A DNA stretch of 64,000 nt from a virus (taxonomy: Duplodnaviria; Caudoviricetes), in IMG/VR virus record IMGVR_UViG_3300042868_009047, one strand, 5' to 3'. Shown here one piece after another: positions 57,278 through 59,248 of the stretch. How positions within the stretch are numbered: position 1 is the stretch's first letter; every line of letters starts with the position of its first letter. Under the pieces are notes generated by a model. It ran no database searches and was not told the DNA's origin. It saw only the letters and a program-made list of their open reading frames with translations. The position numbers and the translations under genes were made by a program.

Positions 57278-57308
57278 TTGTTTATTAAAGGAACTTTGCT
57301 TACTTTTG
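57278..57308 (+). promoter_or_regulatory. Bacteroidota sigma-70-type promoter of the tRNA-array leader
   Basis: TTG 57278-80, 20 nt, TACTTTTG 57301-08. Confidence 0.75.
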
Positions 57309-57332
57309 TACTAATTATAACAATAACGTAAA

Positions 57333-57431
57333 ATGAAAAATATGAACCTACATATCGCAGTGATTAAACCGATGGCAATTTGCCAGTGGTATCGTCATGC
57401 CGTGCCAGGTTCAGACCAAGTATTTTCATAA
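57333..57431 (+). CDS. Putative attenuator leader peptide, 32 aa, MKNMNLHIAVIKPMAICQWYRHAVPGSDQVFS (not in ORF track)
   Basis: A-rich start context 24 nt after the -7 box; codons 6-25 match the downstream tRNA set. Confidence 0.75.
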   Translation: MKNMNLHIAVIKPMAICQWYRHAVPGSDQVFS

Positions 57432-57465
57432 TGTTATAGAATAAAACTAAAACTAGAAAACACAA

Positions 57466-57498
57466 AGCCCTGGACCTACAAGTTCAGGGTTTTTTTTT
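57466..57498 (+). terminator. Conditional intrinsic terminator (attenuator 3:4 helix) before first tRNA
   Basis: AGCCCTGGAC-CTACAA-GTTCAGGGTT with T9 tract at 57490-98. Confidence 0.85.
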
Positions 57499-57501
57499 GC
57501 A

Positions 57502-57511
57502 GTTCTTTGAC
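57502..57511 (+). promoter_or_regulatory. boxA-like antitermination site
   Basis: GTTCTTTGAC between terminator and first tRNA; resembles rrn boxA. Confidence 0.55.
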
Positions 57512-57528
57512 GTATTGGTAATTTATTT

Positions 57529-57604
57529 CAGGATATGGGGGAGTCAGGTCGTCCCTACCTGCCTTGGACGCAGGGGATCGCTGGTTCGAATCCAGCTATC
57601 CTGA
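57529..57604 (+). tRNA. trnP: tRNA-Pro(TGG)
   Basis: CAGGATA/TATCCTG acceptor; CCTGC-CTTGGAC-GCAGG; GCTGG-TTCGAAT-CCAGC. Confidence 0.9.
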
Positions 57605-57610
57605 CAAAAT

Positions 57611-57685
57611 GTCTTCGTAGCTCAGTTGGTTTAGAGCACCTCACTTTTAATGAGGGAGTCATGAGTTCGAATCTCATCGGGGACA
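57611..57685 (+). tRNA. trnK: tRNA-Lys(TTT)
   Basis: GTCTTCG/CGGGGAC; CCTCA-CTTTTAA-TGAGG. Confidence 0.92.
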
Positions 57686-57690
57686 CAAAT

Positions 57691-57760
57691 GTATAAGTTG
57701 ATCGTGGTGGTCGGTTGGTCTGCAACACCAACGGTGTTGGTTCGATTCCAACCTTATACT
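57691..57760 (+). tRNA. trnC: tRNA-Cys(GCA), short D-loop
   Basis: GTATAAG/CTTATAC, U73; TTGGT-CTGCAAC-ACCAA. Confidence 0.8.
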
Positions 57761-57769
57761 CAAATACAC

Positions 57770-57842
57770 ACGTCTGTAGCTCAGTTGGTAGAGCACTGGT
57801 CTCCAAAACCAGGTGTCGTTGGTTCGAATCCAGCCAGGCGTG
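57770..57842 (+). tRNA. trnW: tRNA-Trp(CCA)
   Basis: ACGTCTG/CAGGCGT, G73; CTGGT-CTCCAAA-ACCAG. Confidence 0.92.
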
Positions 57843-57848
57843 CTAAAT

Positions 57849-57928
57849 GCCCTTGTAGGCGAATGGTATAGCCGCTGGTCTTAGAAACCAGAGCGAAAGC
57901 ATTGCAAGTTCGAGTCTTGCCAGGGGTA
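57849..57928 (+). tRNA. trnL: tRNA-Leu(TAG)
   Basis: CTGGT-CTTAGAA-ACCAG; long variable arm. Confidence 0.9.
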
Positions 57929-57933
57929 CACAT

Positions 57934-58006
57934 GCACCTTTAGCTCAGTTGGTAGAGCGCTGCCCTTACATGGCAGATGTCATAGGTTCGAGTCCTATAG
58001 GGTGTA
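57934..58006 (+). tRNA. trnV: tRNA-Val(TAC)
   Basis: CTGCC-CTTACAT-GGCAG; ATAGG-TTCGAGT-CCTAT. Confidence 0.92.
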
Positions 58007-58010
58007 CAAA

Positions 58011-58140
58011 GGTTGATCGGGGAATGATCACATTAATAGTTCGAGAGTGAATACTGACTGGTGTGATCGGAGTTTGTAGGTATTCACCTAAGTAATGCCG
58101 ATCGTAAAAGAGGATGTCCACTAGACCATCTTCCTCTTTC
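58011..58140 (+). ncRNA. Candidate structured non-tRNA RNA inside the array
   Basis: GATCGG/CCGATC, GTGAATAC/GTATTCAC and a 3' hairpin at 58107-58139; no cloverleaf. Confidence 0.5.
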
Positions 58141-58147
58141 CTTACTT

Positions 58148-58229
58148 GCCAGTATCGCATAGCGGCAATTGCAGCGGATTGTAAACCCGCTCTCATTTGA
58201 GTTCGGTGGTTCGAGTCCACCTGCTGGCA
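58148..58229 (+). tRNA. trnY: tRNA-Tyr(GTA)
   Basis: GCCAGTA/TGCTGGC; TTGTAAA loop; long variable arm. Confidence 0.9.
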
Positions 58230-58241
58230 CTATTTATTAGT

Positions 58242-58700
58242 ATGAGAAAACTAATAATAATCATAATGGTTTTATCCACAACGATTTGTAAATCACAAAT
58301 TGTAATAGATAAAGCTGGGGATGGTTGGGATCTAAAAGCTGATAGCGCATTAGCGATTATTAAGCAAACAGATACCACAACTTATAAACTTGTGTTACAA
58401 GTTTGTGATAAAATAACTTTTTGGTCTGGTGGTTACTCAACAAATGAGGGTTCTAAAGATACAAAAGGAAGTATAATAATATCATCTACAGATGCTAAGG
58501 CTAAATCCTTAAATAATCTCGCTGCTGTTATTGTACACGAATCTTTACATCTTTATCTTAGACATAGGGGTATTCAAGAATCACCAAGAGAAGAAATACT
58601 TTGTTATTCATATGAGTATGACTTCTTAAGGAAAATACCTAATGTTGAACAGTATCTGTTGACCCATTGTTTAAAACAGATACGTCTTCGACAAAATTAA
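58242..58700 (+). CDS. Exported HExxH (zincin-like) protein within the tRNA array (likely start MRKLI at 58242)
   Basis: Signal peptide; VIVHESLH plus downstream EEILCY. Confidence 0.6.
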   Translation: MRKLIIIIMVLSTTICKSQIVIDKAGDGWDLKADSALAIIKQTDTTTYKLVLQVCDKITFWSGGYSTNEGSKDTKGSIIISSTDAKAKSLNNLAAVIVHESLHLYLRHRGIQESPREEILCYSYEYDFLRKIPNVEQYLLTHCLKQIRLRQN

Positions 58701-58701
58701 T

Positions 58702-58774
58702 GGGGTCATAGCTCAATTGGCTGAGCGCTACCCTTGCAAGGTAGAGGATGTGGGTTCAAGTCCCACTGGCTCCA
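58702..58774 (+). tRNA. trnA: tRNA-Ala(TGC)
   Basis: G3:U70 pair; CTACC-CTTGCAA-GGTAG. Confidence 0.92.
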
Positions 58775-58780
58775 CTATAT

Positions 58781-58851
58781 TGTCCTGTGGTGTAAAGGCA
58801 GCACATCTGGTTTTGATCCAGAGAATAGAGGTTCGAATCCTCTCAGGACAA
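58781..58851 (+). tRNA. trnQ: tRNA-Gln(TTG)
   Basis: TGTCCTG/CAGGACA; TCTGG-TTTTGAT-CCAGA. Confidence 0.9.
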
Positions 58852-58880
58852 CAACTATCTCGCCAGATTGGCGAGAAAAT

Positions 58881-58955
58881 GGCGAGATAGCTCAGAGGAA
58901 GAGCATTCGGCTCATATCCGAAAGGTCGGGATTTCGAAACTCCCTCTCGCTACCA
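58881..58955 (+). tRNA. trnM: tRNA-Met(CAT), probably elongator; only gene with encoded CCA
   Basis: GGCGAGA/TCTCGCT-A-CCA; TTCGG-CTCATAT-CCGAA; G2-C71 and C3-G70 are Met-like; Ile2 not excluded; T53:C61 mismatch. Confidence 0.8.
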
Positions 58956-58960
58956 TACAT

Positions 58961-59034
58961 GGTGTCTGTAGCTCAATCGGGAGAGCATTGGTTTGTGGAA
59001 CCAAAGGTAGTGGGATCGAAACCCATCAGTCACC
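58961..59034 (+). tRNA. trnH: tRNA-His(GTG) with encoded G-1
   Basis: G-1:C73; TTGGT-TTGTGGA-ACCAA. Confidence 0.88.
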
Positions 59035-59040
59035 CAAAAT

Positions 59041-59114
59041 ACCTTCATAGCTCAATGGATTAGAGTATTTCAATACGAATGAAAGGGTTGGGAGTTCGAG
59101 TCTCTCTGAAGGTA
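59041..59114 (+). tRNA. trnR: tRNA-Arg(ACG)
   Basis: ACCTTCA/TGAAGGT; A20; TTTCA-ATACGAA-TGAAA. Confidence 0.88.
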
Positions 59115-59174
59115 CAATAAACCTGTTTTTGCTACGATAAAGCAACCTACTTTATTGTGCAAAATCTAATTTAT

Positions 59175-59248
59175 CGTCCTGTAGCTCAGTTGGTTAGAGC
59201 ATTTTCCTGATACGAAAAAGGCCGCTGGTTCGAATCCAGCTAGGACGA
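59175..59248 (+). tRNA. trnI: tRNA-Ile(GAT)
   Basis: CGTCCTG/TAGGACG; TTTTC-CTGATAC-GAAAA. Confidence 0.92.

Follow-up and report, generated by a model that had tools for sequence, protein, structure and literature searches.

How phages regulate their tRNA genes, and what dictates the choice of the set they carry, is an open question, such genes being usually treated as constitutive cargo. The question is raised here by a stretch of 64,000 nucleotides of Caudoviricetes DNA (IMG/VR record IMGVR_UViG_3300042868_009047), referred to below in its whole length as the window, where a promoter, a leader open reading frame (ORF) of 32 codons and an intrinsic terminator precede 13 tRNA genes at 57529-59249 (Table 1). 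As judged from the sequence, this locus is quite probably a leader-peptide transcription attenuator gating a phage tRNA operon, with test codons that are those read by the very tRNAs under its control. This is in line with the original prediction, made from the letters alone, of an attenuator-type sensor of the tRNA pool, and support for it comes from the conservation of the leader, its co-variation with the array, the permutation of leader-to-array assignments and the possible alternative RNA pairings 1:2, 2:3 and 3:4.

The tRNA set anticipated at the outset (P, K, C, W, L, V, Y, A, Q, M, H, R and I) was recovered in full by ARAGORN, and the Rfam tRNA model also matched 13/13 of the genes; gaps between the first six of them, from Pro to Val, are of 4-8 nt only. 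The leader ORF, equally borne out by the sequence and the list of ORFs, has an A-rich 5' flank devoid of a Shine-Dalgarno sequence, the absence of which is usual in Bacteroidota. Its codons 6-25 read L-H-I-A-V-I-K-P-M-A-I-C-Q-W-Y-R-H-A-V-P, i.e. they are limited to the 13 amino acids of the array, 13/13 of which are present by codon 21. Besides this restriction, the codon choices follow the anticodons of the array. The Leu codon CTA matches the anticodon TAG and the Arg codon CGT matches the anticodon ACG, against the preference of the long ORFs of the window for TTA (62% of Leu codons, with CTA at 6%) and AGA (69% of Arg codons, with CGT at 15%), so that codon counts uphold what had been proposed in this respect.

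The odds of such a match arising by chance were estimated with random 31-codon ORFs, the codons being drawn from the base composition of the leader or of the window, and 7-8 out of 3,000,000 (about 2.5e-6) held a 17-codon stretch both restricted to the set and covering all 13 amino acids. In 2,000,000 trials with the S-, G-, T- and N-rich amino-acid composition of the proteome, no 20-residue in-set run was obtained. The six frames of the window hold 235 ATG ORFs of 25-80 codons, of which the leader alone qualifies, and the runner-up covers 9 amino acids. The composition-matched random-ORF test suggested together with the original prediction thus rejects chance.

Table 1. Features of the leader, terminator and tRNA array in the window.
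Feature	Position	Strand	Evidence or remark
Bacteroidota-type promoter	57277..57308	+	-33 CTTG (57277-57280), 20-nt spacer, -7 box TACTTTTG (57301-57308)
Leader ORF, 32 codons plus TAA stop	57333..57431	+	Sequence, ORF list
Segment 1, TGAACCT, codons 4-6	57343..57349	+	Minimum free energy (MFE) fold; pairs invariant in 12 variants
Test codons 6-22	57348..57398	+	Only the 13 amino acids of the array, all covered; the run in the window reaches codon 25 (57407)
Segment 2, AGGTTCAG, codons 25-28	57407..57414	+	Can pair with segment 1 or with the terminator 5' arm
Intrinsic terminator	57464..57498	+	Stem 57464-57493, 12 pairs with 8-pair GC-rich core, loop of 6 nt, T9 run
Terminator 5' arm, CCCTGGACC	57468-57476	+	Overlaps segment 3, CTGGACCT, 57470-57477
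Terminator 3' arm, GTTCAGGG (segment 4)		+	Before the T9 run
Conserved motif AGTTCTTTGACGTATTGGTAATTT between terminator and tRNA-Pro	57501..57524	+	Not a canonical promoter
tRNA genes Pro(TGG), Lys(TTT), Cys(GCA), Trp(CCA), Leu(TAG), Val(TAC)	57529..58007	+	ARAGORN, Rfam
tRNA-Tyr(GTA)	58148..58230	+	ARAGORN, Rfam; preceded by a conserved 140-nt spacer (58008-58147)
ORF of 151 aa inside the array, between tRNA-Tyr and tRNA-Ala	58245-58700		ORF list
tRNA genes Ala(TGC), Gln(TTG), Met(CAT), His(GTG), Arg(ACG), Ile(GAT)	58702..59249	+	ARAGORN, Rfam

A leader that mirrors its array for functional reasons would be expected to be conserved and to follow the array when the latter changes. GenBank phages provided no relative of the leader or of the region, generic tRNA similarity only, and relatives were retrieved from IMG/VR and metagenomes by means of a flanking protein, of a sequence word from the array spacer (independent of the leader) and of terminator patterns. 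The leader ORF is kept in about 20 related contigs, corresponding to 12 distinct variants, and 12/12 of them have exactly 32 codons with the same start and stop positions (TAA or TGA), the leader frame being the only open one; its conservation in length, frame and position is thus as the original prediction required. In Ala-carrying arrays, all amino-acid changes at codons 6-22 stay within the set, namely I/V at codon 16, R/P at codon 21 and H/R at codon 22, as does an A-V to V-A swap at codons 9-10, and in every variant codons 6-22 cover all 13 amino acids. Out-of-set residues (Thr at codon 23 and Ser at codon 25) appear in relatives from codon 23 onward only. The set-restricted run, originally placed at codons 6-25, therefore stands as such in the window, but its core across the relatives is codons 6-22.

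The co-variation that was sought between codons and tRNAs is found in the lineage of L002, L015, L074 and L085, the arrays of which are without tRNA-Ala and with a tRNA-Ser(GCT). In the leader of these contigs, the three Ala codons are gone and AGT is gained at codon 11, Arg is gone from codons 21-22 and CGA is gained at codon 9, and codons 6-20 cover exactly the 13 amino acids of their own array. When an equal number of random nucleotide changes was applied to the Ala-type leader in a simulation of neutral mutation, scored for set restriction, coverage and an AGY Ser codon, a re-match of this Ser type was reached with P = 1e-5 to 4e-5. An apparent loss of tRNA-Met in L014 was ruled out, this gene being present with an altered T-arm.

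Some other elements differ or persist among these relatives. The 151-aa ORF accompanies tRNA-Ala in Ala-carrying arrays and is missing from Ser-type arrays, where tRNA-Tyr is directly followed by tRNA-Gln; its product is hydrophobic at the N-terminus and contains an HExxH motif (VHESLH), and Pfam gave no match for it. Even the most distant relative has a nearly unchanged copy of the spacer between tRNA-Val and tRNA-Tyr, stretches of 106, 42, 33 and 32 nt being fully identical. Rfam gave no match for this spacer, a structured RNA was rejected as the fold is no better than that of shuffled sequences, and the spacer is probably a conserved element of unassigned kind. Just upstream of the leader promoter, and hence outside the gated unit, several relatives carry an amber-suppressor-like tRNA with the anticodon CTA (L005 3417-3569; L006, L009, L013 and L017; L014 8890-8962), with an extra tRNA-Cys beside it in L005, L006, L009, L013 and L017 but not in L014; the window has neither. 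These CTA-anticodon tRNAs hint at TAG readthrough or recoding in the phages concerned.

The mirroring extends to tRNA cassettes of quite different content. Metagenome contigs were searched with the terminator motif alone, and about 40% of the motif sites listed have a tRNA array 1-152 nt downstream, many of these arrays being unlike that of the window; in cellular genomes (one per species), 0/88 terminator-motif sites were followed by a tRNA. Each tRNA-linked site comes with a promoter and one short ORF ending 26-36 nt before the terminator arm. The test region of each leader was defined as codon 2 up to the segment pairing best with the terminator arm, and P values were binomial, against a random-codon background. 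In L023, 15/18 test codons are for F, S, H, K, R or W (P = 7e-6), in front of an array of His, Phe, Lys(CTT), Lys(TTT), Trp, Ser(GCT), Ser(TGA), Arg(GCG) and Arg(TCG), and the leader uses AAA as well as AAG and AGY as well as TCN. All 25 of the 25 test codons of L100 are within the set of its array, composed of Gln, Phe, His, Asn, Arg, Ser, Pro, Met, Ile, Lys, Val, Cys and Trp (P = 1e-5). Similarly, T, K, N or R account for 16/24 test codons of L042, the array of which is Thr, Lys, Lys, Asn and Arg on a cut contig (P = 2e-5), 13/19 codons are in set in L021, where the leader is cut at the contig start and the array is Pro, Asn, Asp, Gly and Thr (P = 2e-5), and 10/18 test codons of the second cassette of L115 are for S or R, ahead of Arg, Arg and Ser (P = 1e-4). 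Arrays on cut contigs are incomplete, and the cassette families share the terminator together with traces of leader similarity, i.e. they are probably homologous and not fully independent.

When the leaders of six families were permuted over their arrays, the true assignment came out best among all 720 permutations by both the F1 score and the Jaccard index; the raw in-set fraction was dropped as a cross-match score, as it rewards large arrays. The earlier expectation that homologous leaders would match their own arrays is therefore met with in cassettes well beyond that of the window. Two leader/terminator cassettes can also stand before different tRNA blocks on one and the same phage contig, as observed in L115 (888-998 and 4275-4352).

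How such a leader could act on the array is suggested by the RNA. The U9 terminator announced after the leader was confirmed, and an AU-rich spacer separates it from the leader ORF. Between the inferred start and the T-run, the RNA has a fold of -49.5 kcal/mol, the mean of shuffled sequences being -29.4 (z = -5.0). The entire ORF makes up a long imperfect hairpin, where AUGAAAA pairs with UUUUCAU at the ORF end and UGAACCU (codons 4-6) with AGGUUCA (codons 25-27), with an apical stem at about codons 13-19; the terminator folds as a separate hairpin. The leader hairpin is kept in relatives according to RNAalifold (585/624 cells paired across the 12 variants), with some compensatory changes, including a two-sided base-pair change in L014 that creates the out-of-set Thr at codon 23. 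Segment 2, the core of which (GGTTCAG) is invariant in the 12 variants, provides the best duplex between the leader and the terminator 5' arm: AGGUUCAG (57407-57414) can pair with CUGGACCU (57470-57477) at -12.3 kcal/mol. In all families, the best leader partner of the terminator arm sits just after the test codons, with energies down to -24.9 kcal/mol and a Fisher's combined P of 6.6e-6 over 6 families against shuffled leaders. In the first cassette of L115, the terminator stem CCCGAAC/GTTCGGG is accompanied by a matching segment 2, GTTCGG, i.e. both have co-varied. In a masking model, where the nascent RNA is folded before the 3' arm is made and with the ribosome footprint masked, a ribosome placed at codons 2-15 or 21-22 makes the antiterminator the MFE state; another fold is preferred if no ribosome is present or if it stands at codons 23-31 or at the stop codon.

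Most of what characterises a leader-peptide attenuator is accordingly present in the locus, namely a short ORF, predicted to be translated, downstream of a promoter and upstream of the tRNA genes, regulatory codons corresponding to the controlled product (codons 6-22, the codon boxes and the co-variation), an intrinsic terminator between leader and structural genes, 31 nt before tRNA-Pro, and an anti-antiterminator open to disruption by a stalled ribosome, given the invariant 1:2 pairs and the release of segment 2 upon masking in silico. A logic of the trp/his type is the most parsimonious reading of this arrangement. Transcription would start from the host-type promoter near 57315 and a ribosome would load onto the 32-codon leader, which holds at least one test codon each for P, K, C, W, L, V, Y, A, Q, M, H, R and I, in the boxes of the anticodons of the array. 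With fast decoding of codons 6-22, the ribosome would reach the stop codon and segment 2 (AGGUUCAG) would be covered or re-paired with segment 1 (UGAACCU); with segment 2 unavailable, the terminator hairpin and its U9 would form and transcription would end before tRNA-Pro. No translation would also give termination. Conversely, slow decoding of any one of the test codons would stall the ribosome on the 5' half of the leader hairpin and leave segment 2 free to pair with the terminator 5' arm (CUGGACC), allowing readthrough into the 13 tRNA genes. Since the products are the tRNAs being tested, the circuit would close on itself: as tRNAs accumulate, the leader would be read faster and the operon would shut off, in a closed feedback on tRNA supply. 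Both the translation of the leader and the stall-dependent readthrough are predicted from the sequence. The trigger could be a poor host supply of the test codons, tRNA loss during infection or anticodon nucleases, although naming host defence (anticodon nucleases) or starvation as the actual trigger is speculation; amino-acid starvation would stall the ribosome too, but extra tRNA would not relieve it.

Several observations weigh against this attenuation mechanism. Regarding the RNA, the antiterminator of the window is of 7-8 bp only and taken alone it gives P = 0.17 against shuffled leaders, the eighth pair is lost in relatives, and stalls at codons 16-20 yield no antiterminator in the masking model, segment 1 re-pairing behind the ribosome. 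Besides, the full-length terminator is always more stable than the antiterminator; because it always wins at equilibrium, the switch must be kinetic. In the trp attenuator, the terminator is likewise the more stable structure and the choice is kinetic. Regarding the codons, the commonest leader variant (represented by L003) has CTT for Leu, which needs extended wobble by the anticodon UAG, and codons 3 and 5 are for Asn, an amino acid that the array does not serve, codon 5 being explained by segment 1, which requires those bases. Regarding the match, the L100 leader has no Arg in spite of a tRNA-Arg in the array, and in L058 an Ala-type leader precedes a Ser-type array which, starting immediately behind the terminator, is 99.7% identical to L002. 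The sharp breakpoint of L058 at the shared terminator, and the coverage of 5.5 given in the contig name, point to a recent recombinant or to a chimeric low-coverage assembly; the leader-array match is not absolute and, unless L058 is chimeric, mismatch is tolerated. The conserved motif downstream of the terminator (57501-57524) is left unexplained as well.

The exception among the other cassettes is the L054 type, with a 59-codon leader that contains all 20 amino acids for an array of 14 tRNAs; its in-set fraction is at chance, yet 12/13 called amino acids are covered. The prediction made for this type, i.e. downstream tRNAs for H, I, W, S, V, F and Y, failed: only a tRNA-Phe was found after the terminator, and no other tRNAs lie within 5.4 kb. 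This tRNA-Phe(GAA), located 5 nt after the terminator (L130 6904-6976, minus strand), has an odd T-loop and was missed by ARAGORN in spite of 60.9 bits with Rfam, so tRNA inventories relying on ARAGORN only can be incomplete.

The weaknesses of the antiterminator, i.e. its shortness, its lack of individual significance in the window and its absence upon stalls at codons 16-20, would be less troublesome if the leader were a codon-matched sensor with another output, whether RNase cleavage or stability of the pre-tRNA transcript or a reversed polarity where translation promotes readthrough. The whole ORF, a long hairpin with the start codon paired with the ORF 3' end, is indeed a possible nuclease substrate. 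However, a canonical intrinsic terminator lies directly between leader and tRNAs in every cassette, and segment 2, complementary to the terminator arm, keeps its place in families that have diverged, with a co-varying change in the first cassette of L115. As for a reversed polarity, or a coupling of pyrBI type, the leader stop codon is 36 nt before the terminator arm CCCTGGACC at 57468, and 32 nt before the extended stem at 57464, so a terminating ribosome cannot mask the hairpin. Such an alternative output is considered unlikely. The assembled contigs from metatranscriptomes are evidence neither way on readthrough: an RNA-library contig of a relative spans the promoter, leader, terminator, tRNA-Pro and tRNA-Lys, with DNA carry-over being possible, and the contigs of four metatranscriptome runs cover parts of the array, without information on starts, ends or levels.

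Attenuation by the leader further supposes that the arrays depend on transcription passing through the terminator. The host-type promoter foreseen before the leader was confirmed at 57277-57308, where CTTG-N20-TACTTTTG is close to the Bacteroidota -33/-7 consensus and is kept in relatives, L002 having the perfect form TTTG-N19-TAATTTTG; this consensus is established knowledge on Bacteroidetes promoters. Within 57200-59320, no second TAnnTTTG (-7) box was found. The T-run is 31 nt from tRNA-Pro in the window, and it is 1-13 nt from the first tRNA in L115, L042, L021 and the L002 type, a gap that leaves no room for a separate promoter. The refuting case of a separate promoter downstream of 57498 was thus not encountered, for want of both motif and room, and it is concluded from the sequence that the arrays would depend on readthrough.

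An array that is constitutive or driven by its own signal, with leader and terminator as a separate unit, would have its best candidate in the motif 57501-57524 acting as an unconventional promoter. The 24 nt are identical in L002 (2249-2272), where the motif lies between the first and second tRNA-Pro, i.e. it travels with the tRNA-Pro gene, and a similar motif, GTTCATTGACATCGTGGTAAAAT, follows the terminator in cassettes with arrays starting Gln-Phe-His. Moreover, one tRNA block of L042 (its first; contig 9200-9370) has a promoter but no leader, and some blocks are ungated. The motif was nevertheless ruled out as a promoter, as it occurs once only in the window and its spacing is non-canonical: it lacks a -7 box, its TTTG is only 9 nt before the TA-rich part and a start from it would lie within the tRNA. 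The motif might serve as a processing signal or as a site for a protein. Together with the 1-13 nt left in four cassette types and with the mirroring of leader and array, which an independent signal leaves unexplained, this makes a self-driven array very improbable. Lastly, that an unrelated small protein gene, or an open but untranslated structured sRNA, should match the array by sheer coincidence of composition is hardly credible, even if very many windows were examined, the RNA is strongly structured (z = -5) with part of its conservation possibly at the RNA level, and the out-of-set Thr that replaces Ala23 in L014 stems from a compensatory base-pair change, given the random-ORF probability of about 2.5e-6, the Leu and Arg codon boxes matching the anticodons against the usage of the phage itself, the re-matched Ser-type leader, the five further families each matching their own array (P from 1e-4 to 7e-6) and the permutation result.

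Compared with known systems, the closest in valency are ilvL of ilvGMEDA (Ile/Leu/Val) and thrL (Thr/Ile), the multivalent leader-peptide attenuators of enterobacterial amino-acid operons. The phage cassette resembles them in its intrinsic terminator and in a short leader with regulatory codons for two or more amino acids; translation of the leader, stalling at hungry codons and a terminator, antiterminator and anti-antiterminator that exclude one another would be further shared traits, as predicted from the sequence. While ilvL and thrL control biosynthesis genes and sample 2-3 amino acids in runs, the phage cassette would control tRNA genes, the product of which feeds directly back on the sensor, and its leader samples up to 13 amino acids, mostly with 1-3 codons each and in the anticodon boxes of the array; it is also phage-borne, with a Bacteroidota promoter. 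The pheM leader, which controls pheST (phenylalanyl-tRNA synthetase) by attenuation, is akin in that a decoding-sensing leader peptide regulates a gene of the translation apparatus, but the target is a synthetase gene of the cell and a single amino acid is sensed. The predicted four-segment logic (1:2, 2:3 and 3:4), a terminator stronger than the antiterminator and a decision that would be kinetic are shared with trpL, hisL, leuL and pheL (for pheL attenuation, see PMC3082878). These leaders use one amino acid in tandem codons, and the stop codon and segment geometry differ: the phage leader has its test codons in the loop that segments 1 and 2 enclose, and its stop codon after segment 2.

T-box riboswitches also report tRNA status by a terminator/antiterminator choice in a 5' leader, but they bind uncharged tRNA directly through a specifier loop and the T-box sequence, with no need for translation. 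A T-box was rejected here, the Rfam scan returning no T-box match at E <= 1 and no other leader model at threshold; nothing but tRNAs was above threshold in Rfam, with sub-threshold matches to Thr_leader and ohsC over the spacer and terminator. A coupling attenuator of pyrBI type was rejected too, the stop codon being 26-36 nt before the terminator 5' arm in all cassettes. As for phage tRNA clusters (T4, T5 and jumbo phages), they are regarded as codon-usage or counter-defence cargo and are thought to sustain translation during infection. The present array is like them in being a cluster of phage tRNA genes of that presumed role, for which no description of gating by a codon-matched leader peptide was found. 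More generally, a full-text search of the literature, in a collection that is incomplete, returned no description of leader-peptide attenuation of tRNA genes or of phage tRNA arrays, in keeping with the statement accompanying the original prediction that no such attenuator was known.

The window is phage DNA, a portal protein and a major head protein being encoded, and many lake-water metagenomes contain DNA near-identical to it. The promoter type and a protein with a sorting domain of type IX secretion jointly point to Bacteroidota as the host. This protein of 632 aa (54987-56885, minus strand) exhibits a cohesin domain, a weak dockerin match and a C-terminal sorting domain of type IX secretion, i.e. 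a host-like secreted protein carried by a phage. Also encoded are a Ser/Gly/Thr-rich ORF of 5415 codons (18629-34876, minus strand), which dominates the amino-acid composition of the window, an ATP-dependent protease homologue (34967-37453, minus strand; phrog_4871, E = 2e-254) and a Nol-like carbamoyltransferase (14288-15913, plus strand; phrog_1601, E = 5e-94).

Ribosome-mediated attenuation is in itself textbook knowledge; what is new is the tRNA-gene target, the degree of multiplexing and the co-evolving codon inventory. Beyond the window, it is fairly likely that phages of Bacteroidota possess a modular and evolvable cassette, made up of a promoter, a codon-programmable leader, a terminator/antiterminator and a tRNA block, which works as a closed-loop controller of tRNA supply, the block being transcribed only upon slow decoding of its own codons and the leader being rewritten by selection when the tRNAs change. 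If so, tRNA genes would join amino-acid and synthetase genes among the targets of ribosome-mediated attenuation, a single attenuator would multiplex up to 13 inputs and the content of a sensor would evolve along with the genes it controls. The cassette would offer a sequence signature for gated tRNA blocks in metagenomes as well as a natural design for codon-programmable genetic switches. For the phages themselves, it would mean a built-in sensor of damage to, or shortage of, the host tRNA pool, with the ribosome itself sensing and correcting tRNA supply, and a direct way to test how phage tRNAs relate to translation stress, tRNA-targeting defence included.

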